Both the position numbers and the translations under genes were made by a program. A stretch of DNA of 53,729 nt, from positions 1-53,729 of the forward strand of contig JADFLA010000003.1 of the NCBI GenBank assembly GCA_022564635.1, read 5' to 3'. The notes below the pieces were generated by a model. It was not told the origin of the DNA, ran no database searches, and saw only the letters and a list, made by a program, of their open reading frames with translations. Source of the stretch: Nanobdellota archaeon (lineage in GTDB: Archaea; Nanobdellota; Nanobdellia; Woesearchaeales; GW2011-AR4). This document shows, piece after piece, positions 27,198-47,619 of this stretch (its first letter is position 1; each line of letters starts with the position of its first letter).

Positions 27198-28928
27198 ATG
27201 AAAAAAATAAGAGGGAAATTAAGAAAAGATAAGGTAAAAGCAACAGTTAAAACAAGTGGTTATATTACTGAACGCAAGGAAGCAGAGAGAGCATTGCGGA
27301 AGAGTGAGGAAAAATATATATCAATTACAGAATCAGTTCCCCTTGGGATAGAGGAAATAGATACTAATGGAATAATAACTTTTTCTAATTCAGCGCAACA
27401 CAAAATGTATGGTTATGCTAAAGGAAAATTGATAGGAAGATCAATACTTGATTTTGTTCCTGGTCCTGAGAAAGAAAAGTTGCGCAAGTATCTGAAGTTT
27501 TTGGTGGAGAAACAGCCTAAACCTGTTCCCTATTTTGGAAAGAAAATAACAAAAAAAGGAAAAATTATAGATGTTCAAGTGTCTTGGAATTACAAGCGTG
27601 ACAAAGAAGGACGCGTCATAGGTTTCAATTCTGTCATTACAGATATCACTAAACGGAAAAAAGCAGAGGAAAAACTACTACAACAAGCTGTTTTTATGAA
27701 AAACAATCCGGCCCCTGTTCTTAGAATGGGGTATGACGGTAAGATTATTGAAATTAATCCGGCAGCTAAAAAATTGTTTAAAAAAGACTTAGTGGGTATA
27801 TCGATACATAATATTTTTTCTTATATTAGCAAATCTGTAATTGCAAGCTTACTTATGGTAGACACGTTTCAATTTGAACAAAGAATTGGTAAAGAAACTT
27901 TCTCATTTATATTAAATAGAGATGAGCCAACACATTCATACTGTTTTTATGGTAGTGAAGTTACAGAGAGAGAAAAATCAGCAGAAATGTTAAAAGAACA
28001 AAATAAAGATCTTTTGAGAAAAAGTATGGATTTAACGGAACTTGGAGGACAGCTTGAGGACAGGAATTATGAATTAGAATCTGCAATTAAGAGTATAAAT
28101 AAACAAAATAAAGATCTTGTAAAAACGTCTATGGCTTTAACAGAACTCAGAGGACAGCTTGAGGACAAGAATTATGAATTACAACAAGCAAATAAAGAAA
28201 TTTTGAGCCTTATGGAGGCTAGGACCGATTTTATTAATAAAGCTGCTCATGATTTAAGAACACCTATTACCCCAATATTAGTCCTGCTTCCAACAATTAA
28301 AAAACGCATAAAGGATATTGGAGTTTTATTTGATCTAAAGGTTATTGAAAGAAATGCAAATTATTTGAAAAACATAGCAGACAATCTTATTAGCTACTTA
28401 AAATCGAATACTCAAAAATACGATTATAATTTCAAAAAAACTGATATAAGAGAATTAATAGAAGATGTGCTCATAACTTATAGGGAGGTATTCAAACAAC
28501 GCAAAATATCTATAATAAAAAAATTTTCCGGAAATCTTCCTCTTATTAAATTAGATGGACTTAAGATTACAGAGGTACTTCAAAACATTGTTTCAAATTC
28601 AATAAAGTTTATGCCTAGAGTAGGAAAATTAACTATTAGTGTAAAAAAAATGGATAATTTTATAAATATTAGATTTAAAGATACTGGTATTGGAATTAAA
28701 AAAGAAAATTTAGAGGAGATATTTATAGAATTTTTTAAAGCTGATGTGTCCAGACATACTGCAGGTGAGGGACTTGGTCTTTCAATATGCAAAGGAATTA
28801 TAGAGGACCATCATGGCAAAATATGGGCTGAAAGTAAGGGTCTAGGAAAAGGAACCACAGTATCTTTTAATATTCCAATAACACAAAAAAAGGTGAAGTT
28901 ATATGAAAAACAAACCGAAGAAAAATAA
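27198..28928 (+). CDS. Cytoplasmic PAS-PAS histidine kinase
   Basis: PAS/PAC (DITKRKKAEE), HisKA AAHDLRTP, N box NIVSNSIKF, DTGIGI, GEGLGL; no TM. Confidence 0.93.
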   Translation: MKKIRGKLRKDKVKATVKTSGYITERKEAERALRKSEEKYISITESVPLGIEEIDTNGIITFSNSAQHKMYGYAKGKLIGRSILDFVPGPEKEKLRKYLKFLVEKQPKPVPYFGKKITKKGKIIDVQVSWNYKRDKEGRVIGFNSVITDITKRKKAEEKLLQQAVFMKNNPAPVLRMGYDGKIIEINPAAKKLFKKDLVGISIHNIFSYISKSVIASLLMVDTFQFEQRIGKETFSFILNRDEPTHSYCFYGSEVTEREKSAEMLKEQNKDLLRKSMDLTELGGQLEDRNYELESAIKSINKQNKDLVKTSMALTELRGQLEDKNYELQQANKEILSLMEARTDFINKAAHDLRTPITPILVLLPTIKKRIKDIGVLFDLKVIERNANYLKNIADNLISYLKSNTQKYDYNFKKTDIRELIEDVLITYREVFKQRKISIIKKFSGNLPLIKLDGLKITEVLQNIVSNSIKFMPRVGKLTISVKKMDNFINIRFKDTGIGIKKENLEEIFIEFFKADVSRHTAGEGLGLSICKGIIEDHHGKIWAESKGLGKGTTVSFNIPITQKKVKLYEKQTEEK

Positions 28929-29307
28929 GAAGGTTATCTTGTTGGTTGATGACAATCCTGATCTGCTATATAGCGTCAAAAAAGGGTTAGAGTCTATTAG
29001 CAAAGATTTTAAAGTAGTTACTGTAGAGAGCGGCAAGGAATGCCTGCAATCATTAAAGAAGATTAGACCAGACCTAATTTTATTAGATATAATGATGCCA
29101 GATATGGATGGCTGGGATACTTGCGCTAAAATTAAAAGCGATAAAAAAACAGAAAATATACCTATAGTTTTCTTAACAGCAAAAACTGATCCAGTAAGCA
29201 GGAGTATGGGTGGACTTGCATCTGCGGATTATATAACCAAGCCATTTGATATGAAAGACTTGAAAAAAAGAATTGATTTTGTTATTAGGTCAAAAAATGA
29301 GAAATGA
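28903..29307 (+). CDS. Stand-alone response regulator receiver (REC1)
   Basis: VDDN, DLILLDIMMP, FLTAK and KPF motifs. Confidence 0.95.
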   Translation: MKNKPKKNKKVILLVDDNPDLLYSVKKGLESISKDFKVVTVESGKECLQSLKKIRPDLILLDIMMPDMDGWDTCAKIKSDKKTENIPIVFLTAKTDPVSRSMGGLASADYITKPFDMKDLKKRIDFVIRSKNEK

Positions 29308-29648
29308 AAATCAAAAATATGACAAATCAGATTGTTACTAGAGATTTTTTTAAAACTACTATGGACATTATAGCGGAAAGTACCTCGCGTAGTTATAGTG
29401 CGGTTGTTATAGAAGGGGTTAAAGAACAACTAGGAGAGGAATTTAAGTTCTCAAAAAGTATTCGTATAATAGGCAAATCAATCGAAGTTGATGAGACAAT
29501 TAATTCTGTAGGCGAAATACAATTAAGAAAATTTTTTACAAAAGTTGTTAATATGATGGGAGCTAATTACTTGAAAATGCTGTTGGCCCAAAAACTTGAT
29601 ACAAAAGCCTTAAATTATTTAGAAAATCTTGGATTAAGGTTTGGTTAA
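29304..29648 (+). CDS. Unknown ~110-aa protein, paralogue 2 of 3
   Basis: ATGA overlap with REC1; similar to 25401 and 43826 ORFs. Confidence 0.8.
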   Translation: MKIKNMTNQIVTRDFFKTTMDIIAESTSRSYSAVVIEGVKEQLGEEFKFSKSIRIIGKSIEVDETINSVGEIQLRKFFTKVVNMMGANYLKMLLAQKLDTKALNYLENLGLRFG

Positions 29649-29671
29649 ATAATAATAAAAAAGAACGGATA

Positions 29672-29831
29672 ATGGAAGATGAAAAACTTGAAAATATCAA
29701 TATAACATATCTAACTATTCTTACATTTTCAAAGAATCAAAAACAGAAACTAAAAAAAATTGGATCATATACAAAAATCATTTGATAATAAAGAATTAAT
29801 TACAAGTGTTAATAGGATAACTAAGAAATAA
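29672..29831 (+). pseudogene. Frameshifted remnant of the C-terminal half of a receiver domain
   Basis: MEDEKLENINITYLTILTFSKNQKQKLKK, frameshift in A8 (29752-29759), then LDHIQKSFDNKELITSVNRITKK. Aligns to the C-half of REC3. Confidence 0.6.
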
Positions 29832-29836
29832 GGGAG

Positions 29837-30217
29837 ATGATAAAAATGGCAAAAAAAACAATAATGATAGTTGATGATGAACCACCTATTAACAAGGTAA
29901 TTGAAGATATTTTAGAACCTGAAGGTTATAATGTGGTATCAGCATTAAGTGGTCCTGAAGCTTTAGATAAGCTAAAAAAAGTAAAACCGCATCTTATTTT
30001 AATTGATTTCTTCATGCCTGGAATGTCTGGAAGAGAGCTATGCGTAAAAATAAGAGCAGATAGTAAATTAAAAGATCTTAAGGTGGCATTTATAACAGCT
30101 GCGACATTCTCAGCATCGGGTAGGGACGAACTAGAAAAAATGAATGTTCTAGATACTATAAATAAACCATTTGACTATAAAGATTTGATTCAAAGAGTAA
30201 AGAAGATGGTCGGGTAA
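29837..30217 (+). CDS. Stand-alone response regulator receiver (REC3)
   Basis: VDDEP, LILIDFFMP, FITA and KPF motifs. Confidence 0.94.
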   Translation: MIKMAKKTIMIVDDEPPINKVIEDILEPEGYNVVSALSGPEALDKLKKVKPHLILIDFFMPGMSGRELCVKIRADSKLKDLKVAFITAATFSASGRDELEKMNVLDTINKPFDYKDLIQRVKKMVG

Positions 30218-30244
30218 ATAGGAGTAATAATTGGGTAAGATAAA

Positions 30245-31015
30245 ATGCCAAAAAAAGATAAGTACTTAAAAACAGGTATTGCCGGATTTGATATTCTATT
30301 TGAGCATGGTATACCTAAAGGTAAGGCTATATTAATTGAAGGCTCTGCTGGAACTGGAAAGACAATTTTTTGTCTGCAAACGGCATATAACACATGTAGA
30401 ATGGGTAAAAAAGTGTTGTATATGAGTTTTGAAGAGTCTGAAGATAGCTTAATAGAGCATATGGAAGATTTTGGGTGGAATGCAATTGAAATGCAAAAAA
30501 GAGGCCTGTTGCGAATAACTAGATTTAGCGCTATAGACATAGCAAGGTCTGTTGAGGCTTTGCTTAGTGAGGCAAAAAAGGAACTTTTAATAACTACTGA
30601 AACAGTTCTCTTTCCTCACGACTTTGATCCAGAAGTGATAGTTATAGATTCCCTTACAGCAATTGCTTCAGCCTTTAGTGGAGAAGATTATAGGTTTCGC
30701 ATTTATATTGAACAACTTTTTAGATATCTTGAAAAGAAAAAAATTACCAGTTATTTAATAAAAGAAACTCCTGCTCCAACCCATATAGGCGGTGTTTATA
30801 AAGATGAGCATGGGCCGATAGCTTTTTTAGCAGATGGTATAATATGTATATATAATGTGGTCTATACTGGGGGAAAGAGAGGAGGTGCTATAGAGATTTT
30901 AAAAATGAGGGGTGAAAGTTTTAAAAAAATAACAGTAAAAATAGAAATAAAATCTAAAAGTGGATTAATTGTTTATCCTAACCAAGAACTTAAGGGAAAT
31001 TATGTACTTACTTGA
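30245..31015 (+). CDS. Single-domain KaiC/RAD55-like ATPase
   Basis: TGIAGFD, Walker A GSAGTGKT, SFEES, VIDS, LADG and ILKMRG motifs. Confidence 0.92.
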   Translation: MPKKDKYLKTGIAGFDILFEHGIPKGKAILIEGSAGTGKTIFCLQTAYNTCRMGKKVLYMSFEESEDSLIEHMEDFGWNAIEMQKRGLLRITRFSAIDIARSVEALLSEAKKELLITTETVLFPHDFDPEVIVIDSLTAIASAFSGEDYRFRIYIEQLFRYLEKKKITSYLIKETPAPTHIGGVYKDEHGPIAFLADGIICIYNVVYTGGKRGGAIEILKMRGESFKKITVKIEIKSKSGLIVYPNQELKGNYVLT

Positions 31016-31062
31016 ATTTGATATTTTTTCTATTTATATTATGAACCTATACCTCCTTCTAA

Positions 31063-32565
31063 CTATGATGGCGGAGGTGGAGGTAGTATTTCAATAGATT
31101 TCTTCTTTTTTATTTCTTTTTGTTTCTTCTTTTCTAATTTTTCCTCTTCTGTCTTTACCAAACTAATACTATGGAATAGAGAATAGATTTTTTGCTTCAA
31201 ATTATTTTTAAATAATATGATTTTTTGTTTTCTGAGGTACCTAATCCTAGGTAAATCTTCTTGTTCCCTTTTTTGTCTTAATAACTTCCTATATTCTATT
31301 GCACTTTCAATTCTTTTGATTAAACTGTCTACGTATAGTTTTAATCTGATAATTTTATTTGATATGAACATTTGTAAAGGCTGCAAAAATTTAAATCTTT
31401 TTTCTTTCTCTATCTGAGGCTCTTCCTTTTTTCTCTTTTTCCTTATATAAATATATAAAAATATTGCAGATAAAATTAATATGCTTGCTATAACTAAAGC
31501 AATAACACCAAAAGTACCAATTATTAAATTTAAAGCTTCCGCAACATTTAAACCAATCTTTTTGATAAATTCTAATATTTCAGAATAGGAAGCTATCTTA
31601 AAATATATAATTAAGAATATTACTGCTGCTATAAAGGCTAGTAAAGATATAGCAATTATAATAATTCTCTTACGTAATTTAAGCTTCTCGGTTTTAACTT
31701 CTTCCTCTGCCAGTCCTTTTATCCTTTCTCTCTCTTCAATTAGCAACGGAATTTGCCGTTCTATATCCCTTATTAATTCTCCAAATTTCTCTATTCTTAT
31801 ATGATACAATTCTTCAGGTATTTTGAAGAGATGAAAATATTCGTATTGGGTTTGCTTTATGAGGTTTTTCAAAACTTCTTTTTCAAAATTCAAATCTTTT
31901 ATTTTTCTATTAATTAAATATATAGCAATTCTTTTATGAGAGAACGAGTAAACAATGCTAATAATAACAATTGTAAAGGTTATCTCTTTCCATCTGTCCT
32001 TGAAAAAATCAACAACAGTCTTTGTGCTTGCTTCATAAATTGCCCTAAATCTTGTTTGCAAAGCCTGTTCTTCACTTATTTTTACATAGGCTTCTTCTAC
32101 CAGCTCAGCTACTTTGTCGTATCTTTCATCAGCAAATTCCTCTTTTGCTTTATTAAATATGGCAAATGCTTCACTTTCGTATCCTGTTTCTTTAAGCCTT
32201 GTTTCAAGAGCTTTTAACTCATCACTCATTTCTTCAGCTTGTTCTCTTAGCTCTGTTATTTCTTTTGTTCTTTCTAAAATAAGGGAATAATCAGGTGTGC
32301 CTCCTGCTTTCTCTAAAGCATACTGAGCTTCAAATAGCTGCTGAGCTTGACTTAAAGTGTCGTTTATTCTCAAAACACTATAGCCGGTATCTATTGTCTC
32401 TTGCAAATCTATTCTTGACTGGTTAAGTGCTTTGACTGTCTCATTATAACCTTGAGCTTTTATTGGATCCAGACTTATTATTAATAAAAAAAACATACTT
32501 AAAATTAAAATAAAAATTTTCACTTTTGTCATTTTATTTCTTGGCTTTTTTATTTTCATCCTCAT
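31063..32565 (-). CDS. Multi-TM helical membrane protein (500 aa)
   Basis: Signal peptide, helical ectodomain, TM, LIKQTQYEYF module, two further TMs, basic tail. Confidence 0.75.
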   Translation of the reverse strand: MRMKIKKPRNKMTKVKIFILILSMFFLLIISLDPIKAQGYNETVKALNQSRIDLQETIDTGYSVLRINDTLSQAQQLFEAQYALEKAGGTPDYSLILERTKEITELREQAEEMSDELKALETRLKETGYESEAFAIFNKAKEEFADERYDKVAELVEEAYVKISEEQALQTRFRAIYEASTKTVVDFFKDRWKEITFTIVIISIVYSFSHKRIAIYLINRKIKDLNFEKEVLKNLIKQTQYEYFHLFKIPEELYHIRIEKFGELIRDIERQIPLLIEERERIKGLAEEEVKTEKLKLRKRIIIIAISLLAFIAAVIFLIIYFKIASYSEILEFIKKIGLNVAEALNLIIGTFGVIALVIASILILSAIFLYIYIRKKRKKEEPQIEKEKRFKFLQPLQMFISNKIIRLKLYVDSLIKRIESAIEYRKLLRQKREQEDLPRIRYLRKQKIILFKNNLKQKIYSLFHSISLVKTEEEKLEKKKQKEIKKKKSIEILPPPPPS

Positions 32566-32589
32566 TTTTAATTATGTGCATAAAAATAA

Positions 32590-35500
32590 TTATTTTGTAA
32601 ATTTATCTGCTGTTTTTCTTTCATAATACAAATCCTTAATATGAGGATAAATTCTTACTTTGTTTTTCTGATCTAATCCATTATACATGCTCATAATTTC
32701 TATGTAGATTCTTTTTGCATCATTAAATTTAAAGTCCATCAATGCAAGCCTTGCTTTGTGTATTTTCTCTTTTATTGCATTAATACTGTCTGTTTTTACT
32801 TTTGCTTTTTTTACTTCTGGTTTGAGTTTTACTGGAGGTATTTTAATATGTTCAACTGCTTTTCCCTTTCTCTTGAATAAATCCCCTATGACAGAAAACC
32901 TTTTCTTTTCCTCTCTTTTCTTCTCAAGCTTTTTCTGGTGTTCTCTTTCTTTTTCTTCATGTTTTTCTTTTAATTCTTCTTGTATTTCTTTCTCTTTTCT
33001 TATCCTTTCCTCGTCTTTCCTTCTTTTTTCTAACTCTTTTTGTCTTTGTTTTCTAAATTCTTTTCTTCTCTTTTCTTCCCTTAACCTTTCCTTTCTCTCT
33101 TTTTCCGGTAATTTTTCCTCTTCTAGTAATTGAGAAGGTGCTTGTGGGGTTGATAATTCTATAGACTCGGTTTTCCTCAATTTTATCTGCATTTCTTCCT
33201 TCTTTTGTTTTTTTAGTAATTTCAATGGCCTTATTTCTTCCATTATTTTTATTAAATTTTCAAAAAATAAACTTATTCTAGAAATTATTACTGTTTTTTT
33301 ATGCTCCTTTGCTTTTTCTTTTGGTTTCTCTTTTTTGGGTTTTAATTTAATTCCAAACAAACTTAAAAATTTTAACCTTCTTTCTTTCCTTATAGCAGCT
33401 TCGGCCTCTTTTAATATTATCTTTCCCTCTACCTCACTTAACTTAGTAGAATAGTTGTGTATCTTCCTCTTGTATACCCCAGTTTCCTGTTGTCCTTTTA
33501 CGATGTATTCATCCTGTGTTTGTTTTATTAAATCAAGCAATCTTTTACGTTCTAGAGACAATCTATGAAGAGCAGGTCTTACCAAAGAGGCTTTTAGGCT
33601 TTCTAATTCTAATATTTTTTGAATAACATCGCTTAGTTTCTTTTCATATTGTAGCATTGTTATGTTATACTGCGCCATATCTATTGTCTTTTTTTCAAAA
33701 CATTCACGCTGTGCAGTCTGCATTAAACCCCTTAAAATTCCTCTTTCCTTGAGTGAATTTCTCAGATCATAATTTATTTTTTCAATCTTTATTTTGAAGA
33801 ATATACTCAGAGCAAAAATTAGAATGTAAAATGCCATAAAGCTTGCTAATAGACGATTTCTTTTGATAAAATCCAATATAGAAAACTTACCTTTTGTTTC
33901 CAAGGCGAATGTTAGCTCAATTTCCTTGAGCCTTGCAAAAGCAGTGAAGTAATCTTCTCTTTCTAACGCTGATAGGGTAAGCGAAACTAATCTTTGTGTA
34001 TCTGGAGTTTCTATCCCTCTCTCTTTGGCCTTAGCAATTTTAACAGTAAATTCCTGTATTTTTTCATATGCTTGTAAAGCTCTTGCAACCTTTTCTTTTA
34101 TTAAATCATGCAGTTCTTGAACAGCTTCATAGTCTGTAGCCTTTAATTTATCTTTACTGTCAGCTAAAAGTTTTCTTAGTTTTTTAGTACTTAAATTTAG
34201 ATCCTCTAATATAATAATTTCATTTAAACTTAAATTTATAAGCTTAGCAGCATCTTCCCTACTTAACTCATGAATGGCAAGCAATACTTTTCTTTTTTCT
34301 GAAAAATGTATTGTTTGCGTTGAGTTTGTTTCAGCAAATTTCTTAATATATATTGCATCTATTGTAAAATATAAAGTCCACTCTCCTTTGGTAAAGTATC
34401 TTGGAGCAGTAATACGAATTATCACGTTAGCAGAGCTGTTAGGAGCAATTTCTGAAGGTATGTTAGTTAGTTCAATATATTGGGCTAAAAATCCTGTAAC
34501 AGCAACACTAATATTCTGTAGAGGCCAATCGAAATCATTATTTATAGGCAAGATAAAGTCTTCATCTTCCCCTCTAACAAGTTCGTATACTGCTTCTGTT
34601 TCAATCTCTTGTTCTTGAATGAGACCAGCTCCGATTCCTCCTCCTCCACCACCACCACCTCCACCACCACCACCTCCGCTTACAACTGTTGTTATGGTTA
34701 TGGTAGTAGCAGCTGTTGATGTTTCTGTAACAACTATAGAAGCTGCTGCACTACCACTTCCGCTGTTATTTGATGCTGCTGTTACATTTACCTTTTGAGT
34801 CCCTGTAGCAGCATTAGAAGTAAGATTTACAGTTATGTTATGATAAACTATCTCTTGAACTGAAACATTGGTAAAATTCTGATTTAATCTTCCTGTAATA
34901 TTGTTCCATTCACTTGGTAATGTCCAATTTACATAGGTAAAGCCTGCTGTTTCATTACCTATATTTTTTATTGAAGCATTTAAATGATGCACTCCAGGAT
35001 CGCTTTTGTTGGCTTCTGTTGGAGGATTTATTATAGTAACATCAAAAACAGGACCTCCTAGAAATACAGTTATTTTAGCCGAGGTTATTTCTGAATCTGG
35101 AACTGCGTCAGTTGTTGTGGCATCTATTGTTAACTCGGCATCAAATACACTTGTAGTTGTCCCTGCATCTGCAGTTACTTCAACAACTTCATAATCTTTA
35201 GCAGCTAAATCAAATGGTTCTGTTTTATTAAAGGAAGTACCCGTAAAACGGGATGATAAATCAAAGGTCAATAGGGAATCTCCTGAATTGTTTATGGTTA
35301 AATTTCCAATGGAACATGTTGTAGAAACTGGACAAGCTATAGCAGTAAATTTATTAGGTATCCTATTCCATGTAAGCTCTTGTTCTACAGAAATATTTGT
35401 AATTTTTGAAGTAGCGTTAAATCCTACATGATCAGTTACATTAATGAAATAACTCCAATTACCGGTTTCATCTGGTGTAAACGAAGTATTAAATAATCCA

Positions 35501-38500
35501 ACATTGTTGAGCTGTGCAGTTGCTATTTTAAATGTAGCTGCTGATGCTAGTTTGTAAAACAAAACAACTGTTTTAACTCCTGAACTGCTATCTGTAACAT
35601 TTATTGTAAAGTTTAATAAAACATCATCATCAACATCTGCTGTTGTGTTAGGATCAAAGCTTATTTTATTAATTATTGGAGCATTTAAATCGACTGAAAA
35701 GTTTCTTGTTTCGCTTGTGTTTGAATTAGCTCCGTCTAAGCAAGTTATATTCCAAATGAAAGTCCCTTCACTTATATTTTTGATTTCAAATAATGTGGCA
35801 GTTCCGTTAAGAGTTGACGAGTTTGTTGTGTTTAATACAGCGTCAAAGTAAATTGAACAATTTAATGAAGTAGCAAGGTTATCAGTTACGTTAAATTTAA
35901 AGGTAACATTTTCAGAGCTCGAATTGAATAAATTTACAGGACTAGAGATATTTACAATGGGTTTTACTGTATCAATTGTAAAGCTAACAGTTACATTAGC
36001 GCTTGGAGCAGCTCCAGAAACATTATCGAATAAGCTTACATTTAAAATGTAAATTCCATCAGATGCATTAAATGTTGTGTTTCCTAGTTGAGTTTGGTTT
36101 AAAACACCATCAATATAATAAGAAATATTTATTACATCATTATCCCTGTCGTTTTCAAAAGTTACATTTAAGTGAAGAGGTTGTAAATTTGTTTTTAAAT
36201 CGTTAGTTGGGAAAAATATTGTTGGTGTGGGAATAAAGTTTGCTACTGTTATTATTTGCTCACTTTGGTTTAAAAAATTGCTTGTATCATTAACAATAAC
36301 AGTAAAGTTAATTACATTACCTCTTGCCAAGGCAATAGTGAAGTTTTGTGAGCATTTATCATCAGTTCCACTTATGCTTGTATTGAAAAATTCTTTTGCA
36401 CCAGAGCTTTGATTTGTTATAAACTGACAGAATGATAAAAATGCATTATCGGTAACATTCGCACTTATATTTACAACATCATTTTTTGTTGGTGCTGAGT
36501 TGTTTATAGATGAATTCATTCTTGGTGGCGTAGTATCTTGTGTATAATCTAATACGAAATATATTTGGTCTATATTGATACTGGCTGCTGATCCAGCGTC
36601 AGTATCATCCCCAGCACACCTAATTTCAATTTCATCATTATTCACATCAGTACATGTTGCATCTGTTATAGTTATATTGTGTTCATGCTCTGCGGTATTA
36701 TCTATTCCAGTTTCGTAATCAATAGCTGACCAAGTCGAACCATCATCTAAAGAATAGGTTAAACCAACTCTGCCTCCTTTATTTGACTCAACTTCTAAAT
36801 GTATGCAATGGGCAACTATAGAATTAATACTTACACAATCATTAACAGTTGTGTTACGAGTAACAACAGTTATATAATCGTCATCCTTGCCGTTTATCGT
36901 ATAATAGGTTGTATCATTAGTTCTTACTTCATCGCCAGCATCGCTTGTAGAAGTTCCACTGCAAGTTGCTTCAGTAGGATCATCACTTGTAGGTTTGTCG
37001 CAGAATACGGCATCAGTATCTGCTGAACCAGTTCCAATATCGGATGCAGGATCAATAATATGATCAAACTCTAAATAAGCATTTTTATTATCATCGAGAT
37101 TTTTTATTTTTAAATCAAAAGTGTCATGTGCTCCATCCATTCCGATCAATAAAACCTTATAATATTTTTCTTCAGTTATTACTGGAAATTCTGTTATTTT
37201 TTCAGCTGAATCTTCAGGATAAACTTCTATGTAGGTATTTAAGCCTTGATTATTCCTAGTATAAACTGTTATATCATTTGAAGATGTTAAGTTTCTTTCA
37301 AATGTAATCCTTACATATTCATTTTCATAGATTGGTTCTGACCATATAGTATCTTTTTCAATCACTTCATCATATATATCTGAAATAAATACATAATTTT
37401 TATCTAAATGCATAGCTTTTGTTATTCTAATGACATTAATTTCAAATTCTTGTTCAGAAGTATGCGGGGTTATCCAATAAATAGTATCAATTAAACCATT
37501 TGAATTTTCATCGGCAAATGAAACTTCAAAATAATTTTCATTAGTGATATCTGTTTTTATTTTTCTTCCATCACCAATTATTAAATATTCAGAATCAATA
37601 TATTCCTTATAATCTTTTTCAGAAGCATACCAATATAATTTAATTATAGCATCAGGATCTTCTGGAATAGAAGTAAATGTTAAAATATCTGTATAAGGTA
37701 ATTCAGATGAAACAGTTATCTTCTTTCCATTAATAATTTCCTCTTCAATAGCAATAGGAGCTTCTGTATAATATTCAATCTCTATTTCCTCTACCTCTTC
37801 CTCAATAATAATTTCTAATTCATCGCTATCCTTTACATCGACTATGGCATAACCTGTCAGGGAATTAAATTTATTAAACATCCAATTTAAAAATCCGGAA
37901 AATAAACTTGTTCCATCTGTTATTCTTACTGAATAGCCAGTTATTTTATCCAGTTCAAATTCATCAACTGTCTTAATTATATTGTCTTTTTTTACTTTTA
38001 TGTTCTTCTTATTAATCTTAAATTCTTTGTTATTAATAATTTTTTTAGCACTAAAATTAATTATTTTTGGCAGGGTAATGTTTGCCTTTGTTGCATCGGA
38101 ATACCTGACTCTTACCTTCCATTTAACTGGTTGGCCAATAACGGCCCTAAACTGCTTAGTTTCTATATTTACTATTATTGCACCTGTAATATTTTCAGTT
38201 TTTTCAACAGTATCAATAACTTCTCTAAATTTAGCTGATAAATTTTTCTTAGAAGAATAATAAATGTCAACATATGGCTTATCAACGCTTAAATTATAAT
38301 CGACATAAATTACTTGAGCAGAAATTGTATTATTGAAAGAGGTTCCATACTGCCAATAATTAATGTAGAATATTTCATTCCAATCATTTCTTAAAGATGT
38401 TAATTCAACAAAATTGCAACATCTTTGGCTTCCATGACATATAGTATTTGCATTTCCAGAATCTATCGAATATATGTTCCATCTTGTGCATAGATTTTCT

Positions 38501-38916
38501 TCCTTGACATTCCAATTAAATTGAGTATTTTTAACAGTTAAATCAATAATACCATTAATTGTTTCTATTCCATCGTTATCTTCATCGTAAGGTGTATTAT
38601 TATTATAATTTAATATTATTTTTATTGATTTGTTTATTGTTATATTTGTAGTTATATAGGTATCATTAATTGTTTGATTTGTATTAATTTCATTGATTGG
38701 TTTACTAATATTTATGTATGATATTGGAATATTTACATTTGTTTTATTAATTGGTAATGTGATATTTGGTATTTTATCATTAATTGATACATTTATTTCA
38801 GAGCTATTGGTATCATTCAAAGCGTATACTAATGAAAATGGAATTATTATAAGTGCAAGGAGTATTGGAGCTAATTTAATCATTACTTTTCCTGCTTTAT
38901 CATCTAATAATTTCAT
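32590..38916 (-). CDS. Giant (2108 aa) membrane-anchored surface glycoprotein or adhesin
   Basis: Signal peptide, many NxS/T sequons, Cys-rich and Ig/CARDB-like domains, Thr-rich plus Gly14 linker (34636-34677), one TM, Lys/Glu-rich tail. Confidence 0.85.
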   Translation of the reverse strand: MKLLDDKAGKVMIKLAPILLALIIIPFSLVYALNDTNSSEINVSINDKIPNITLPINKTNVNIPISYINISKPINEINTNQTINDTYITTNITINKSIKIILNYNNNTPYDEDNDGIETINGIIDLTVKNTQFNWNVKEENLCTRWNIYSIDSGNANTICHGSQRCCNFVELTSLRNDWNEIFYINYWQYGTSFNNTISAQVIYVDYNLSVDKPYVDIYYSSKKNLSAKFREVIDTVEKTENITGAIIVNIETKQFRAVIGQPVKWKVRVRYSDATKANITLPKIINFSAKKIINNKEFKINKKNIKVKKDNIIKTVDEFELDKITGYSVRITDGTSLFSGFLNWMFNKFNSLTGYAIVDVKDSDELEIIIEEEVEEIEIEYYTEAPIAIEEEIINGKKITVSSELPYTDILTFTSIPEDPDAIIKLYWYASEKDYKEYIDSEYLIIGDGRKIKTDITNENYFEVSFADENSNGLIDTIYWITPHTSEQEFEINVIRITKAMHLDKNYVFISDIYDEVIEKDTIWSEPIYENEYVRITFERNLTSSNDITVYTRNNQGLNTYIEVYPEDSAEKITEFPVITEEKYYKVLLIGMDGAHDTFDLKIKNLDDNKNAYLEFDHIIDPASDIGTGSADTDAVFCDKPTSDDPTEATCSGTSTSDAGDEVRTNDTTYYTINGKDDDYITVVTRNTTVNDCVSINSIVAHCIHLEVESNKGGRVGLTYSLDDGSTWSAIDYETGIDNTAEHEHNITITDATCTDVNNDEIEIRCAGDDTDAGSAASINIDQIYFVLDYTQDTTPPRMNSSINNSAPTKNDVVNISANVTDNAFLSFCQFITNQSSGAKEFFNTSISGTDDKCSQNFTIALARGNVINFTVIVNDTSNFLNQSEQIITVANFIPTPTIFFPTNDLKTNLQPLHLNVTFENDRDNDVINISYYIDGVLNQTQLGNTTFNASDGIYILNVSLFDNVSGAAPSANVTVSFTIDTVKPIVNISSPVNLFNSSSENVTFKFNVTDNLATSLNCSIYFDAVLNTTNSSTLNGTATLFEIKNISEGTFIWNITCLDGANSNTSETRNFSVDLNAPIINKISFDPNTTADVDDDVLLNFTINVTDSSSGVKTVVLFYKLASAATFKIATAQLNNVGLFNTSFTPDETGNWSYFINVTDHVGFNATSKITNISVEQELTWNRIPNKFTAIACPVSTTCSIGNLTINNSGDSLLTFDLSSRFTGTSFNKTEPFDLAAKDYEVVEVTADAGTTTSVFDAELTIDATTTDAVPDSEITSAKITVFLGGPVFDVTIINPPTEANKSDPGVHHLNASIKNIGNETAGFTYVNWTLPSEWNNITGRLNQNFTNVSVQEIVYHNITVNLTSNAATGTQKVNVTAASNNSGSGSAAASIVVTETSTAATTITITTVVSGGGGGGGGGGGGGGIGAGLIQEQEIETEAVYELVRGEDEDFILPINNDFDWPLQNISVAVTGFLAQYIELTNIPSEIAPNSSANVIIRITAPRYFTKGEWTLYFTIDAIYIKKFAETNSTQTIHFSEKRKVLLAIHELSREDAAKLINLSLNEIIILEDLNLSTKKLRKLLADSKDKLKATDYEAVQELHDLIKEKVARALQAYEKIQEFTVKIAKAKERGIETPDTQRLVSLTLSALEREDYFTAFARLKEIELTFALETKGKFSILDFIKRNRLLASFMAFYILIFALSIFFKIKIEKINYDLRNSLKERGILRGLMQTAQRECFEKKTIDMAQYNITMLQYEKKLSDVIQKILELESLKASLVRPALHRLSLERKRLLDLIKQTQDEYIVKGQQETGVYKRKIHNYSTKLSEVEGKIILKEAEAAIRKERRLKFLSLFGIKLKPKKEKPKEKAKEHKKTVIISRISLFFENLIKIMEEIRPLKLLKKQKKEEMQIKLRKTESIELSTPQAPSQLLEEEKLPEKERKERLREEKRRKEFRKQRQKELEKRRKDEERIRKEKEIQEELKEKHEEKEREHQKKLEKKREEKKRFSVIGDLFKRKGKAVEHIKIPPVKLKPEVKKAKVKTDSINAIKEKIHKARLALMDFKFNDAKRIYIEIMSMYNGLDQKNKVRIYPHIKDLYYERKTADKFTK

Positions 38917-39128
38917 TTCTTAATCTCCCATACATTCAGATTGCTGATTCTATAACCTAAAATCTTACCAGCTAATTGTAATCTCAAACAATGACCTTGA
39001 ACAGAATGCCATGCCCTGCCTATCTTTAGGGCTATATCCCTTGTAGAAATCGGAGTTTTTGAATCACGTAGGACTTTAAGTATATCGGACTCTATTTTTC
39101 TGCCTAATTTAGCCTTCCTAGTAGTCAT
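38913..39128 (-). CDS. Small winged-HTH regulator (71 aa), translationally coupled to the giant protein
   Basis: ILKVL..PISTRDIA.KIGRAWHSV..L.L..G wHTH pattern; ATGA overlap. Confidence 0.8.
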   Translation of the reverse strand: MTTRKAKLGRKIESDILKVLRDSKTPISTRDIALKIGRAWHSVQGHCLRLQLAGKILGYRISNLNVWEIKK

Positions 39129-39163
39129 TATTGTATATTATTATACTTTTTATATATAAATAT

Positions 39164-39201
39164 TGCGAATATTGATACTAATATTAATACTAATATTCGC
39201 A
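39164..39201. promoter_or_regulatory. Candidate operator next to the TATA box (39149-39160)
   Basis: 10-bp inverted repeat TGCGAATATT...AATATTCGCA enclosing two direct ATACTAATATT repeats. Confidence 0.55.
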
Positions 39202-39410
39202 CTTAGAAAACTAGTTTTTTTGTGTTATGAGTACAATCTTTATTTTGTCGAAACATATATAAAACAAATCATTAAGAAAAGGATTGAATAGAATGTATAA
39301 AAATTAAATTTAGACTCAGATGAGGATATCATAGAAATTTGCCTAACTCTGGATTAACATCTGGAGTTTGATTTATAATTTTATTTTAGAGGCAAATTTC
39401 TAGGACACTG

Positions 39411-39460
39411 AGAAATGCCAAAGGCATTTCTGGTGTGCCAAAAATTGCAAAGCAATTTTT
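39411..39460. repeat. REP-like tandem palindromes with C-AAA-G centre, cluster 1
   Basis: AGAAATGCC-AAA-GGCATTTCT and AAAAATTGC-AAA-GCAATTTTT. Confidence 0.75.
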
Positions 39461-39608
39461 AAGTATGCCAAAAATAGATAACTCATAGGTACAATTTTTC
39501 GCTCTGTATTCCGCTTCACTACATCCCGAGTTATCTATTTTTGTGCATATTCCCGTAGAAAGTTTTAAATAGAAATATTATAAGGTTATAGTAAAAGAGA
39601 GTGGTCTT

Positions 39609-40145
39609 ATGAATATTGAAGAAGAAATTATAAAAAATCAGTCGATATTGGTCTTAATTGCGAAATCTGAATATCCAAGTAAACATATGGAAATAGTAGG
39701 ATTATTGGACAAAAATTTCAAAAAAATAGGTTATGTTTACCTCAAAAAATCCTACAAAACTCTTAAAAAAAAATTAACTAAAAACAAAGTTAACTTTAAC
39801 AAGTTTTTATTTATAGGCCTAAATAAACCTACTAAAGAACAGCTTAAAGCAGAATATTATAGTTATATTACTTCGCCTGCAGATTTTGGAGGAATAAACA
39901 TAGCTTTATCTGATTTGGTGTATAGGGGATGTAAAAGTTTTTTATTTGATTCTTTATCTAATATGATTGCTCATGTTAAGAGAGATAAATTGCTCAAATT
40001 TATAAATACAATAATTATTAAAACAAAAGTTGCTAATGCTAATGTTATTTTTTTAGCTTTAAGTGAAAATATTGACTCTAATTTGTTTAATGATTTAAAT
40101 ATGGTTTTTGATAAAATTATTGTGACTCCAACAGATAATAAATAA
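39609..40145 (+). CDS. Degenerate RecA/KaiC-fold protein without Walker A (DUF835-like)
   Basis: YVYLKK, SPADF and FLFDSLSNM pattern; paralogue of 5454-6005. Confidence 0.6.
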   Translation: MNIEEEIIKNQSILVLIAKSEYPSKHMEIVGLLDKNFKKIGYVYLKKSYKTLKKKLTKNKVNFNKFLFIGLNKPTKEQLKAEYYSYITSPADFGGINIALSDLVYRGCKSFLFDSLSNMIAHVKRDKLLKFINTIIIKTKVANANVIFLALSENIDSNLFNDLNMVFDKIIVTPTDNK

Positions 40146-40184
40146 AACAAAGAGAGTATTAAAGGGATAGCATAAAAAATAAAA

Positions 40185-43100
40185 TTGATGAATGGGATAT
40201 TTAGCATATTCAAAAAAGAGAAACCAGAAGTTAAAGAAACAGAAATTAGAGTAGCTGATGGGATAATTGATTATGCTGTTAGTTTGATAAAAGATAAGGA
40301 AAGTATCAAAGAACAGCTTAAAGAAATTGATAAAATAAGAAAACTTCCTGTTGACGAAAGAGAATATTCTTACCTGCTGGTGTATCTCAGCTTAGAAAGA
40401 GTTATTTTAGCAAAAAAGCCTGCACCTACTAAAGAATATTTTTCACGAAAGATTTTAAAAAAGCCAAAAGAATTTACGCAAGATGGTTTAAGAAGAACTA
40501 TAAGAAAAAAATTTGAAATAAATAAACTAGGGGTATATTTTAGAGTTCTATTTCTTAATGAACCTCAGCAAAGTTTAATTCTATATGAGCTAATGTTTCA
40601 GGAATTTATGGATTTAATATCTGATAAAATTAAAAAAAAAATTCCTGATGTTATTTTAAAAGAAAACTATGATGTTCTTAATGGCACTAAAATAGAAAAT
40701 GGAAAGATGGATTTATCATCTGTAAATGAGAAAATTGAAGAAAAACAAGTGAATGTTGAAGATATAATAATCCCTTTTAAAAATTTATTCTTTGTATTTT
40801 ATAGCAATGTAGTTAAAAGTGACGGCAAAGAGTTAGCTGATAAACTTGTGATGGATGTTTACAATTTTGTAGAAATTTACGGTCATCCTCTAACCTCGGC
40901 TGCAATTCAAATTTTGCCCAAGATAACATCTAAAGAAACAAAAGCAGCAGCTGCTCATAGGATTGTGGATTATTTAAGCATGCTAATTTTAAGAAAAGAC
41001 CTGATAAAGCCTCAAATTGATAAAATAGCGGATGCTGAAACACTTCCAGAAGAAGGTAAAGAAAAAGTCTATTTTAGTATTTATCTTGAACTGGAAAAAT
41101 TTATGATTGACCATTTACCTCCTGCTGTAGAAAAATCATTTACCAGAGAAGAGTTAAGAAAAGAAATAAGGGAAAAGATTAATACTCAAAATTTGGAGCA
41201 TAGATTTAAGTTACTATTTTTAGGAGAAAAAGAGCAATTAATTGAGTTATTTAATATGTTTTATGGGTTGCTTTTAGAACAGATGGTTTCATTTTGGGCA
41301 GCAGGTGATTTACAAAAATTTGTCAGCGAAAATGTAAAAGGAACAATGCTTGATAGTCTTGGATTTACTATTGAGAAAAAAGAAATTGGTTTTGATGTTT
41401 CTGAAACAAATATCGATACTTTACCAAAGAATAAACTAAAAGATGTTATTCATGATTTGTCTGCATTTCTTCTTGTTTTGTATAAAAATGCAAAAGAGAC
41501 AGGTGGTGAGAAAAAGGCAGAAAAGGCAATTAGCAAGGCCTATAAAATAATGAAAGAACAATATGGCATGCTTCCTATTTTTAATGATTTTGTTAGAGCA
41601 ATTCCAGAAGGCGTGTTAGACTATGAGAATAAGATTTTATTATCACCCAGAGCAGCGGAAGAGGTTGTAACCTATATAACTAAAATTCTAAAAAAAGAAA
41701 AAATAGAAGAGCATTTAAAGGCCATGGAAGAAACAAGGAAATTACCTTTGGAAGAACAGGCAGAAGCTTTCTTTAATATTTATATTAATTTACAGCATTA
41801 CATTATTGAAGAAAGACCTTCTTTTAAAGGAAAAGAGATAACCTTGTCAGATTTAAAGGAAAAAATAAGAAGACATGTAAATGTCAAAGATTTAGAGGAC
41901 AAATTTCAACTACTATTTTTAACGCATGACGAAGTACTTGTTAAACTTGTGAGAGACCTAATTAAAGAATGTATTGTTAATTTTATTGATAAAAAAGCTT
42001 TGGTAGAAGCTGTAAAAGATCTTACAAAAAAAAACTCTTTTTTAAGGAATGTGGAAATTGATGAAGAAGGCTTAATTGATTTTGAACCGTTTTTTGATAA
42101 GCTTAAAAAAGTTGAGGTTGCGAAAGTTAGAGTTCTTAGCATTACTTTATCTAAGATCGTATTAGCAATATATGAAAAATCTAAAGAAATTTTAGGAGAG
42201 TTACAAGCTAAAAAACTTTTTGAGATTGCTTATGCAAATCTGCAAAAAAAATATGGTGCAAATTTATTGCAGGTATTAAGAGTTATTCCCAAAGGAATAC
42301 TGGAAGCTGAGAAATTTGAGTTACTCGGTAAAGAGGAAATAGAAAAAACTGCCAAAGAAATGGTAAAAATAGACACTATAAAAGGAGAGTTTATGAATAT
42401 CGCAGCACATGAACTAAAAACACCTCTTGTGCCAATTATTAGCTATCTAGAGATGCTACTTAATGATAAAAGGCTAGCGAGGGATCAGAAAGAAAAGCTA
42501 AGAATATGCTTATCCTCTGCAAAGAGAGAAGCTGATTTAGTAAGTGATATACTTGATATAAGCAAGTTAGAGGCAGGATCATTAAAGTTAGAGTTTGAAA
42601 CACTTGACATGGTAGAGCTTTTAAAAGAAATTACAGATGGTTTAGGTCCTGCTATAAGGGGGAAAAAACTGGCATTTAAAGTAGAAGTACCATCTAAACT
42701 TCCACTTGTTAGAGGGGATAAGAGAAGACTTACACAAGTAGTATCCAACTTAATTAATAATGCTACAAAATTTACAGATAAAGGGAGTATAACTGTTAGA
42801 GCTCAGATGGAAAAACAAAATATACTTGTTAGTGTAATAGACACAGGAATGGGCATTAGTAAAGAAAATATACATAAGTTATTTACAAAATTTTTTCAAG
42901 TTGATAGCACTGCTAGGAGAAAACAGGGTGGAACAGGCTTAGGATTAGCAATTTCCAAAGGGATTATTCAAGGGCATAAAGGCAAACTATGGGTTGAAAG
43001 TGATGGTATAGGAAAAGGCACTACTTTTTCTTTTACAGTGCCATACCTTCCTACAACAGAAAAAGAAAAAATGGAAACACAAAGAGAACAAAACTCTTTT

Positions 43101-43235
43101 GTTTCCCAGGAACCAAAGGTGAAAACAGAAAAAGTTATAAAGAACAAAGCTAAGGAAAAGAAGAAAGAGAAGGATAAGGTTAGAAAGTCTAGGCATAAAA
43201 AATCATCAATAATTAAAAACACGCGAAAATCGTAG
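40185..43235 (+). CDS. Cytoplasmic histidine kinase with three tandem ~230-aa unknown N-terminal repeats
   Basis: HisKA AAHELKTP, NLINNATKF, DTGMGI, FFQV, GTGLGL. Repeats start near 40254, 40953 and 41655. No TM. Confidence 0.92.
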   Translation: MMNGIFSIFKKEKPEVKETEIRVADGIIDYAVSLIKDKESIKEQLKEIDKIRKLPVDEREYSYLLVYLSLERVILAKKPAPTKEYFSRKILKKPKEFTQDGLRRTIRKKFEINKLGVYFRVLFLNEPQQSLILYELMFQEFMDLISDKIKKKIPDVILKENYDVLNGTKIENGKMDLSSVNEKIEEKQVNVEDIIIPFKNLFFVFYSNVVKSDGKELADKLVMDVYNFVEIYGHPLTSAAIQILPKITSKETKAAAAHRIVDYLSMLILRKDLIKPQIDKIADAETLPEEGKEKVYFSIYLELEKFMIDHLPPAVEKSFTREELRKEIREKINTQNLEHRFKLLFLGEKEQLIELFNMFYGLLLEQMVSFWAAGDLQKFVSENVKGTMLDSLGFTIEKKEIGFDVSETNIDTLPKNKLKDVIHDLSAFLLVLYKNAKETGGEKKAEKAISKAYKIMKEQYGMLPIFNDFVRAIPEGVLDYENKILLSPRAAEEVVTYITKILKKEKIEEHLKAMEETRKLPLEEQAEAFFNIYINLQHYIIEERPSFKGKEITLSDLKEKIRRHVNVKDLEDKFQLLFLTHDEVLVKLVRDLIKECIVNFIDKKALVEAVKDLTKKNSFLRNVEIDEEGLIDFEPFFDKLKKVEVAKVRVLSITLSKIVLAIYEKSKEILGELQAKKLFEIAYANLQKKYGANLLQVLRVIPKGILEAEKFELLGKEEIEKTAKEMVKIDTIKGEFMNIAAHELKTPLVPIISYLEMLLNDKRLARDQKEKLRICLSSAKREADLVSDILDISKLEAGSLKLEFETLDMVELLKEITDGLGPAIRGKKLAFKVEVPSKLPLVRGDKRRLTQVVSNLINNATKFTDKGSITVRAQMEKQNILVSVIDTGMGISKENIHKLFTKFFQVDSTARRKQGGTGLGLAISKGIIQGHKGKLWVESDGIGKGTTFSFTVPYLPTTEKEKMETQREQNSFVSQEPKVKTEKVIKNKAKEKKKEKDKVRKSRHKKSSIIKNTRKS

Positions 43236-43250
43236 ACTTTCGGTGAACTG

Positions 43251-43328
43251 GGAAATTTCAAAGAAATTTCCGGTTTCCCAAAAATTGCAAAGCAATTTTT
43301 TAGGATCCTGAAAATGCAAAGCATTTTC
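43251..43328. repeat. REP-like tandem palindromes with C-AAA-G centre, cluster 2
   Basis: GGAAATTTC-AAA-GAAATTTCC, AAAAATTGC-AAA-GCAATTTTT (identical to 39440-39460) and GAAAATGC-AAA-GCATTTTC. Confidence 0.75.
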
Positions 43329-43447
43329 ATGACAATAAAGTTCAAAAACATAATAATAATTGATTGATTAACTTTTTGTATTATTAAAGATTATACCACA
43401 ACAAATAATAAAAAATTAAATCAAACAAATTTTAAGAATTTATAATA

Positions 43448-43822
43448 ATGGTAAAAAAATCAATAATGATAGTTGATGACGAACCAATGATCGTAAAAGT
43501 AGTAAAAGATATTTTTAAAGAGGAAGGTTATAAGGTAATTACAGCATTAAGTGGCCAAGAATGTCTTGAAAAATTGAAAAATACAAGTGTAGATCTAATT
43601 TTGCTTGATATAATGATGCCGGGTATGGATGGCTGGGATACGTGCGCTAAAATCAAAAGCGATAAAAAAACAGAAAAGATACCTATAGTTTTCTTAACAG
43701 CAAAAACTGATCCGGTAAGCAGGAGTATGGGCGGGCTTGCATCTACAGCTTATATAACCAAGCCATTTGATATGAAAGATTTGAAAAAAAGAGTTGATTC
43801 TGTTATCAAAGCTAGCAAATAA
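43448..43822 (+). CDS. Stand-alone response regulator receiver (REC2)
   Basis: VDDEP, DLILLDIMMP, FLTAK and KPF motifs. Confidence 0.95.
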   Translation: MVKKSIMIVDDEPMIVKVVKDIFKEEGYKVITALSGQECLEKLKNTSVDLILLDIMMPGMDGWDTCAKIKSDKKTEKIPIVFLTAKTDPVSRSMGGLASTAYITKPFDMKDLKKRVDSVIKASK

Positions 43823-43825
43823 GAA

Positions 43826-44164
43826 ATGGTAGATATGACAAATCAGATTGTGACTAAGGATTTTTTTGAGAAAACTATTAATATTATAGCTCAAAATACT
43901 TCTTTTAGTTATAGTACAATTGCTTTAAACGGTATTAAAATGCAACTAAGTAAAGAATTTAATTTCTTAAAAGATATTCATATAAAAGGAAAATCGGTAG
44001 ATGTTGATAAAACTATAAATAATATTGGAAAAAATGAATTGAGAAATTTTTTTAGAAAAGTAATTGATATGGTAGGGCCTAATTACTTAAAAATACTTTT
44101 GGCCCAAAAACTCAATCCTAAATCATTGATGTATTTAGAAAATATTGGGTTAAGGTTTGGTTAA
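43826..44164 (+). CDS. Unknown ~110-aa protein, paralogue 3 of 3
   Basis: Directly follows REC2; close homologue of 29304-29648. Confidence 0.8.
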   Translation: MVDMTNQIVTKDFFEKTINIIAQNTSFSYSTIALNGIKMQLSKEFNFLKDIHIKGKSVDVDKTINNIGKNELRNFFRKVIDMVGPNYLKILLAQKLNPKSLMYLENIGLRFG

Positions 44165-44575
44165 ATGGCAATAAAAATATTTTCCTGGATTGTATATGTA
44201 TTGTTTTTTCTTATTTTAATGAATTTTGTATCAGCCCAATCAGAGATAATTAATCTTAATAATCTAAAAAATATTGCAATTCCTATACACTTGTTTGAGC
44301 TGGTTTTAGCACTTTTTATTGCATTCATGTCTTTGAAATTTTTTAGAATAACTAAACCTATTAGTTTATTTTTATTTATATATGTTGCTGTAGGTTTCTT
44401 TATTATTAATTCATTGCTCTACTTATTTTTTTATTTGAGTATAGATACCAGATTAGAGATGGTTTTTGTAAATGTGCATATAGGAAGTAGGGTTGCATTG
44501 ATGGGGATGTTAATATCATTTGTAATCTTTTTCTATCAGTGGAATAAGATTATGAGAAGAACGGATATTAAGTAG
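44165..44575 (+). CDS. Hypothetical membrane protein (4 hydrophobic helices)
   Basis: Abuts the previous stop codon. Confidence 0.7.
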   Translation: MAIKIFSWIVYVLFFLILMNFVSAQSEIINLNNLKNIAIPIHLFELVLALFIAFMSLKFFRITKPISLFLFIYVAVGFFIINSLLYLFFYLSIDTRLEMVFVNVHIGSRVALMGMLISFVIFFYQWNKIMRRTDIK

Positions 44576-47544: not shown

Positions 47545-47619
47545 TGGGGCGACTGGCGAGAATCGAACTCGCGCAACAAGATCCACAGTCTTGTATTCTA
47601 CCACTAAATTACAGCCGCC
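47545..47619 (-). tRNA. tRNA-His(GUG), intronless, with encoded G-1 and CCA
   Basis: G GCGGCUG...CAAGA CUGUGGA UCUUG...CGAG UUCGAUU CUCG C CAGUCGC C CCA. Confidence 0.95.

Follow-up and report, generated by a model that had tools for sequence, protein, structure and literature searches.

The stretch of DNA analysed here, called the window throughout, comprises 53,729 nucleotides of the genome of a Nanobdellota archaeon (GenBank assembly GCA_022564635.1, contig JADFLA010000003.1). The gene under study lies between positions 40185 and 43235, where the forward strand contains only one long open reading frame, and it encodes a histidine kinase whose N-terminal region carries three copies of a domain of ~230 amino acids (aa). 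As listed, the reading frame opens with a TTG codon at 40185 and its product reads LMNGIFSIFKK at its start. Because 18 orthologues open with MG(I/L)F.IFKK, translation almost certainly begins at the ATG at 40188, which gives a protein of 1015 aa with its stop at 43235. M1, F8 and K10 of the N-terminal peptide are near-invariant across the orthologues, and residues 1–19 were modelled with a predicted local distance difference test score (pLDDT) of <50. The features of the gene are given below by position; the E-values of the three repeats against the repeat profile are partly circular, as these repeats sit in its seed.

40188..43235, forward strand: histidine kinase gene, 1015 aa (open reading frame and orthologue alignment)
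40188..40238, forward strand: N-terminal peptide MNGIFSIFKKEKPEVKE (MG(I/L)F.IFKK conserved in orthologues)
40239..40934, forward strand: repeat 1, residues 18–249 (E 2.8e-72 to the repeat profile)
40935..41633, forward strand: repeat 2, residues 250–482 (E 6e-86 to the repeat profile)
41634..42323, forward strand: repeat 3, residues 483–712, the best-conserved copy (E 1.7e-78 to the repeat profile)
42324..42383, forward strand: helical linker (model helices 707–724 and 732–758; 31-residue spacing)
42384..42581, forward strand: HisKA (DHp) domain with the H-box HELKTP (PF00512, E 2e-14)
42717..43049, forward strand: HATPase_c catalytic domain (PF02518, E 6e-29; Foldseek match to the HK853, WalK and CusS cores)
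43056..43232, forward strand: Lys/Arg-rich disordered tail, residues 957–1015 (59 aa, 22 K/R)

The N-terminal 725 residues were cut into three overlapping pieces, which were compared with one another by BLASTP. Repeats 1 and 2 (R1 and R2) were 27.6% identical over 239 aa (E 1.8e-17), R2 and repeat 3 (R3) were 31.0% identical over 232 aa (E 1.3e-23) and R1 and R3 were 29.0% identical over 107 aa (E 3e-12). Smith-Waterman scores of the repeat pairs stood at 14–27 standard deviations over 300 shuffles, none of which reached the real score. The copies are offset by 233–234 residues, as had been claimed in the original prediction, an earlier reading of this DNA by a model that saw only its letters and reading frames, and the three tandem copies described there are borne out. 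The motifs that it listed (A..I..Y, LP..E....Y..L, L..IR, F.LLFL, G...A.......Y, YG and (I/L)P) coincide with the consensus that emerged from 133 non-redundant domain instances; motifs across the family are Y..LE.FI, F.LLFL, idF, lGe..A, Y...k..Yg and lP.g.Le. An internal duplication within the repeat was rejected, as no similarity was found between its N-terminal and C-terminal halves (hhalign probability 1.3%).

A word-indexed search recovered 17 orthologues with the same three-repeat architecture, 38–67% identical over residues 1–725, one of which was labelled Nanoarchaeota archaeon. Mean orthologue identity was 0.42 for R1, 0.43 for R2, 0.60 for R3, 0.78 for DHp and 0.72 for the catalytic (CA) domain; conservation climbs toward the kinase core and the copy nearest to the core is the most constrained. 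The tails of the orthologues differ widely in length and reach ~250 residues, rich in Lys and Glu, in P0018. In a maximum-likelihood tree of the 133 instances, with midpoint rooting and Shimodaira–Hasegawa-like support, R1, R2 and R3 each formed a separate clade across the orthologues (support 0.999, 0.965 and 1.0 respectively) and these three clades did not group together. R1 lay next to a large single-copy clade under this rooting, while R2 and R3 clustered (support 0.76) with copies that are second or later in other multi-copy proteins. Since each copy forms its own clade across the orthologues, the triplication appears to be old, with all copies kept since before the family diverged.

The repeats were compared with libraries of named families and of known structures. 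Residues 1–720 of the kinase gave no match in Pfam-A (2025 copy) at E≤1 and nothing in NCBIfam 20. When 33 repeat instances were scanned against Pfam at E≤5, no family occurred in more than three of them; PAS_9 and PAS_10 appeared once each, both with E >0.03, and profile matching assigned the repeats to none of PAS, GAF, Cache or HAMP. A profile built from the 33 instances found nothing significant among all PDB sequences. AlphaFold2 was run on R3 with an alignment of 28 rows that included distant single-copy relatives. The best model had a mean pLDDT of 89.5 and a predicted template modelling score of 0.83 (the five models spanned pLDDT 83.6–89.5), and is predicted to consist of ten helices and small two-residue hairpins. 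Foldseek returned no neighbour for this model, the best E-value being 0.96 in PDB, with template modelling (TM) scores ≤0.24 among 224 matches, and 0.73 in BFVD. Within the libraries searched, the repeat is therefore an all-alpha domain of ~230 residues that has no named family and no solved fold. The original prediction had called it an unrecognised domain outside PAS, GAF, Cache and HAMP, and had proposed family-library and structural comparisons that would have exposed a known sensor; both agree with that description.

Other signalling proteins also have helical input domains, for example 4HB_MCP, the non-haem globin of RsbR and the four-helix bundles of the NarX type, and most four-helix-bundle sensors are periplasmic. 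The present domain differs from these modules in having no PDB sequence or Foldseek likeness to them, in its apparently cytoplasmic location and in the absence of a conserved haem His. It is highly improbable that the repeat is a very divergent version of a known helical fold, bromodomain-like or another four-helix-bundle sensor, that the tools missed. Such a reading gains from the poor performance of Foldseek on all-alpha folds and from a PDB profile match to the bromodomain of BRD7 over profile positions 111–198, although at E 0.05 this match is insignificant. Neither a bromodomain nor another fold emerged from the 224 Foldseek matches, despite the confident model, nor did any Pfam family recur in the 33 instances, and a bromodomain identity was rejected.

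The remainder of the protein is readily recognized. Pfam matched HisKA at residues 733–798 (above the cut-off) and HATPase_c at residues 844–954, and NCBIfam matched the core and nothing else. The H-box His is His741, encoded at 42408–42410, and the HATPase_c domain has all of its boxes: N (854), G1 (DTGMGI, 885), F (899) and G2 (GGTGLGL, 914). The DHp and CA domains align with the cores of HK853, WalK and CusS with target-normalised TM scores of 0.7–0.8 and 28–31% identity (Foldseek E 1e-13 to HK853), and the H, N, G1, F and G2 boxes are shared; unlike the present kinase, all three are membrane sensors whose input is periplasmic, HAMP or PAS, and none has the new domain. No transmembrane segment was found in the kinase, the highest mean Kyte-Doolittle value over 19 residues being 1.55. 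With its H-box His, its GHKL ATPase boxes and an adjacent receiver that has the acceptor Asp, the protein is best read as an active, soluble, class-I (HisKA) sensor histidine kinase, its activity being predicted from the intact motifs. The soluble histidine kinase of the original prediction thus stands, with an intact HisKA/HATPase_c core and no stretch of transmembrane strength.

An exhaustive hidden Markov model search of 1.84 billion cluster representatives with the repeat profile yielded 284 clusters at E≤1e-3, of which 165 had E≤1e-10 and 41 had E≤1e-30. The independent members P0024, P0112 and P0171 scored 1e-48 to 1e-55. Copies were counted in 170 proteins, 169 of which had a domain match: 133 had one copy, 10 had two, 24 had three and two had four. 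The C-terminal half of the domain alone (profile positions ~96–229) is repeated in P0033, P0044, P0026, P0028, P0046 and P0062, and because this half repeats on its own the 230-residue unit appears to consist of two separable sub-modules. A stand-alone form also exists, represented by P0171 (245 aa), which is encoded inside a 39-kb contig. In a single case, the groundwater bacterial contig L033, the gene for this 245-aa form lies 6 kb from a heliorhodopsin gene (the two genes occupy 846–1670 and 8001–8738).

In the window genome (G000, 1.43 Mb, 87% complete) the domain was found in the kinase gene only. Of 401 genomes sampled from the phylum of the window, a true domain match occurred in two (G000 and G338), the other matches being due to coiled-coil overhang of the query; the domain was absent from the one sampled genome of the same genus and from all four sampled genomes of the same family. 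P0024, with two copies, is encoded in the 0.9-Mb genome G401, and two of 401 genomes of that phylum had the domain. A word-indexed search with residues 1–250 of P0024 returned only P0024 itself. The domain of life was assigned from the presence of eIF2-gamma or of bacterial RnpA: G338, G402 and G403 had eIF2-gamma and no RnpA, and the reverse was found in G401 and G688. Bacterial gene content (Mur ligase, RnpA, RNase Y and Peptidase_M23) was also evident at L016, L029, L048 and the P0084 locus. The survey of taxonomic distribution that the original prediction had called for thus places the domain in archaeal and in 0.9-Mb bacterial genomes. The family thus occurs in archaea and in bacteria with small genomes and is infrequent in either group, a pattern that points to lateral spread of the domain.

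The domain almost always forms the N-terminal part of a HisKA kinase and seldom stands alone. Among 72 long relatives, HATPase_c was detected in all 72 and HisKA in 70, and a PAS domain lay between the new domain and the kinase core in about 30 (about 40%). The first copy begins at a median residue of 19. In P0117 the domain follows a long multi-span hydrophobic region (residues 1–235), and one hydrophobic helix at the N-terminus precedes it in P0095; as it stands after a membrane-type segment in both, it would lie on the cytoplasmic side. In 18 orthologues and 14 further proteins, 32 in all, the distance from the end of the last copy to the H-box His was exactly 31 residues, with a conserved linker, LP.G.LE.E.f..LSKEEL; in the window protein R3 ends with IPKGILEAEKF, which continues into this linker. 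Downstream of the kinase gene the following genes were identified.

43448..43822, forward strand: stand-alone CheY-like receiver, 124 aa (PF00072, E 8.5e-28)
43826..44164, forward strand: X3, 112 aa, no Pfam family (paralogues at 29304–29648 and 25401–25730)
44165..44575, forward strand: hydrophobic membrane protein, 136 aa, no family

The receiver has the canonical residues D10/D11, D54, T84 and K86 and has no output domain. A receiver gene follows the kinase gene at most of the loci examined (L001, L002, L004, L029, L050 and the P0084 locus). Taken together, the domain is probably a cytoplasmic signal-input module, which occupies the usual position of PAS or GAF and drives a kinase that feeds a stand-alone receiver; its reception of the signal, the direction of signalling and the connection to KaiC are inferred. 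A ligand or a partner protein would bind and alter the last domain copy, and the change would run through the fixed 31-residue helical linker into the DHp helix, where it would tune how His741 is autophosphorylated and how the phosphoryl group passes to Asp54 of the downstream receiver. As the receiver has no output domain, its output would be by protein contact, in archaeal members most likely through the genomically linked network of KaiC-family ATPases.

Cytoplasmic kinases with PAS or GAF domains, of which that encoded at 27198–28928 of the window is an example, are likewise soluble, have an N-terminal input joined by a helical linker to HisKA/HATPase_c, commonly have tandem inputs and have a stand-alone receiver as partner. 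The present kinase differs from them in an input that is all-alpha, of ~230 aa and devoid of a PAS, GAF, Cache or HAMP match or a fold neighbour, and its relatives with a PAS domain have the new domain upstream of PAS rather than in its stead.

The kinase gene lies close to a second signalling block, which contains the following genes.

25869–27074: FIST
27198–28928: PAS kinase without the new domain
28903–29307: receiver
29304–29648: X2
29837–30217: receiver
30245..31015, forward strand: KaiC-family ATPase (PF06745, E 1e-43)

X3 is 61% identical to the product of 29304–29648 and 26% identical to that of 25401–25730, and two of the three X proteins are encoded directly after a receiver gene. 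The receiver and X pair is duplicated (28903–29648 and 43448–44164), the receivers being 70% and the X3 and X2 proteins 61% identical, and as these pairs are recent duplicates the downstream parts of the two kinase cassettes appear to stem from one recent duplication. The PAS kinase was rejected as a recent domain-swap partner, as the two kinase cores are only 33–34% identical. No homologues of the X proteins were found at the orthologous loci L001–L004. A relationship between the X proteins and the repeat sub-domain was also rejected (hhalign probability 1–3%, with an aligned region that shifted with the profile).

Genome G000 has only two clear histidine kinases, defined by an HATPase_c score that passes the Pfam threshold, and both are encoded in the window together with three of the four clear receivers of that genome. 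With two histidine kinases in the genome, the three-repeat kinase represents half of the two-component sensing of the organism. Positions 25869–44575 form a 19-kb signalling island with both kinases, three receivers, FIST, KaiC and a 2108-aa protein. ARAGORN, a tool blind to multi-intron tRNA genes, identified one tRNA in the window (His, 47545–47618).

The gene order of the second block was compared with that at the locus of an orthologous kinase, L001. There the three-repeat kinase gene is the first of an operon and is followed by receiver, receiver and KaiC genes; it occupies the slot that is held by the PAS kinase in the window. The L001 KaiC is 80% identical to that of the window, and the synteny between 30245–38916 of the window and 9930–15081 of L001 takes in the KaiC gene, a 500-aa gene with a weak holin-like match (67% identical between the two) and a giant surface-protein gene, all with matching position and orientation. 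A KaiC-family gene was found ≤3 kb from the kinase gene in L002 and L004, and directly after it in L018 (genome G338) and L049 (P0029). Overall, a KaiC gene or a gene resembling that of P0002, the protein encoded directly upstream of the window kinase, lay ≤10 kb from the kinase in the window, L001, L002, L004, L018, L049 and L050, that is, in seven of eight archaeal or multi-copy loci, which are not all independent. As these genomes of 1.4–1.7 Mb held only 2–6 full KaiC genes each, the odds of such proximity arising by chance would be only a few per cent per genome.

The gene for P0002 and two copies of a short repeated element surround the start and the end of the kinase gene.

39407..39475, no strand assigned: 69-nt palindrome-rich element, copy 1
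39609..40145, forward strand: P0002, 178 aa, weakly KaiC-like (42 nt upstream of the kinase gene, same strand)
43247..43315, no strand assigned: 69-nt palindrome-rich element, copy 2 (12 nt past the kinase stop)

The original prediction had described P0002 as a dead KaiC-like protein. It has no Walker A P-loop (GxxxxGK[ST]), in agreement with the first part of this description. Its likeness to KaiC is weak: hhalign of a 16-sequence family profile against the KaiC family gave E 3e-4 and a probability of 40%, with the alignment in register over a strand-helix region and the Walker-B-like motif FDSLS opposite iDSLt of KaiC. P0002 matched DUF7504 with E 8e-4 and 20.3 bits, below the cut-off of 27, and gave no match to Pfam KaiC; BLASTP against the window KaiC and a search of PDB sequences gave nothing. 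P0002 is plausibly a KaiC-like protein without a P-loop, and ‘inactivated KaiC’ proteins devoid of a P-loop have been described from archaeal signalling systems (PMC5847659). Among 301 genomes of the order, 86 encoded members of the P0002 family (~180 aa), frequently with 2–5 copies each, and a second copy is present in the window at 5454–6005. Family members adjoin a true KaiC gene in L037 and, in L040, a kinase whose core is closely related; in L050 a further member (E 8.6e-18) is encoded upstream of the P0033 kinase. The family looks like a common archaeal signalling adaptor without a name. P0002 had also been put forward as a possible input of the kinase. The family members beside kinases in L050 and L040 are in keeping with this role, but at L001–L004, the loci of the four closest orthologues, no P0002 gene adjoins that of the kinase; a functional link between P0002 and the kinase is plausible and is not a conserved feature of the orthologues.

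The two 69-nt copies are 81% identical, form short hairpins with CAAAG loops and share an exact core of 23 nt that is found nowhere else in the window. They flank exactly the P0002 and kinase genes. The flanking copies, along with the different gene order in L001, hint that the P0002 and kinase pair has moved as a unit.

The recurrence of these neighbours bears on a different function for the domain, in which each copy binds a KaiC-family hexamer, P0002 or receivers, and so docks components into a signalling complex, comparable to the way in which SasA uses its KaiB-like domain to dock on KaiC. Besides the gene neighbourhoods, including the P0002-family genes upstream of the kinase in the window and in L050, conserved residues that are structural rather than pocket-like and a scaffold-like variation in copy number from one to four, with a half-domain that repeats alone, are consistent with such a module. 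It is nevertheless somewhat unlikely: no KaiC gene adjoins the single-copy members in bacteria, the operon that holds KaiC in the window contains the PAS kinase and not the three-repeat kinase, P0002 is missing from L001–L004, and the fixed 31-residue linker speaks for signal transmission over passive docking. The original prediction had spoken of a new cytoplasmic sensor or scaffold module. The position of the domain and its fixed coupling to the core fit that proposal, while sensor and scaffold cannot be separated by these data.

Several observations weigh against the reading as an input module linked to KaiC, or limit it. The stand-alone form P0171 has no kinase within 8 kb, and no KaiC neighbour was present in any of the bacterial loci looked at. 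A PAS kinase that lacks the new domain stands at the head of the KaiC operon in the window, so that KaiC is tied to the two-component system overall and not demonstrably to this domain. Conservation across the family falls mainly on hydrophobic or aromatic residues (five Tyr among them) and on Gly and Pro, whereas neither Cys nor His is conserved, so that no binding site can be named; this pattern neither favours nor excludes a pocket, and no ligand, cofactor or partner was identified. The verdict on the fold comes from a predicted model and from Foldseek, which is less sensitive for all-alpha folds.

Small hydrophobic proteins at some loci raise the question of whether the kinase works at the membrane surface, held there by the MGIFxIFKK peptide and the Lys-rich tail, with the domain reading a small membrane protein or the state of the membrane. 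Related hydrophobic proteins of ~97 aa (44% identical, E 3e-18) are encoded directly upstream of the kinase in L016 (3935–4228) and L050 (310–603 and 605–901), with a possibly similar protein in L029 (5625–5939), and such proteins, one bacterial locus included, are possible membrane partners of the domain-bearing kinases. The conserved N-terminal motif, the basic tail, the 136-aa membrane protein in the gene row of the window and the membrane-anchored versions P0095 and P0117 would all suit a membrane location, but the 136-aa protein shows no likeness to the ~97-aa proteins and a small hydrophobic neighbour of this kind is missing at most loci. A membrane-surface role is quite improbable.

Membrane sensors of other types are encoded upstream of the kinase at some bacterial loci, namely 4HB_MCP-HAMP in L016, dCache and CHASE-PAS in L029 and HisKA_7TM-PAS at the P0084 locus. 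A general pattern of orphan membrane sensors upstream was rejected as anecdotal, as it was not seen in L047 or L048.

The preferred interpretation, a cytoplasmic input module, may be set beside systems in which kinases and KaiC are already linked. In the SasA-KaiC system of cyanobacterial clock output and in the archaeal KaiC signalling hub (PMC5847659 and its reference 41), as here, the genes of a histidine kinase and of KaiC-family ATPases are linked in the genome and stand-alone receivers predominate. The docking domain of SasA is KaiB/thioredoxin-like and not helical; the putative link of the present domain to KaiC comes from gene neighbourhoods and does not extend to the bacterial relatives. 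A bolder view, which we regard as unlikely, is that of a new sensor fold confined to ultra-small, probably symbiotic DPANN archaea and to 0.9-Mb bacteria resembling those of the candidate phyla radiation (CPR), exchanged between the domains of life, with the multiplied archaeal copies physically coupling the kinase to a hub of KaiC and inactive KaiC. If this were true, the archaeal copies would represent a second, independent solution to coupling of the SasA-KaiC type.

The novelty of this system is the input domain; the kinase is otherwise of the ordinary two-component type. A census of archaeal two-component systems in 2018 found very few in complete DPANN genomes (PMC5847659). The new domain, with ~280 clusters, no library name and no resembling solved structure, is common to small-genome archaea and bacteria and is a candidate for a new Pfam family. 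Its confident model, for which no similar fold was found, also makes it a good target for structural genomics. The recurrent KaiC neighbourhood offers a testable way into the wiring of bacterial-type kinases to the archaeal KaiC network, and the binding target of the domain would reveal what these reduced organisms monitor.

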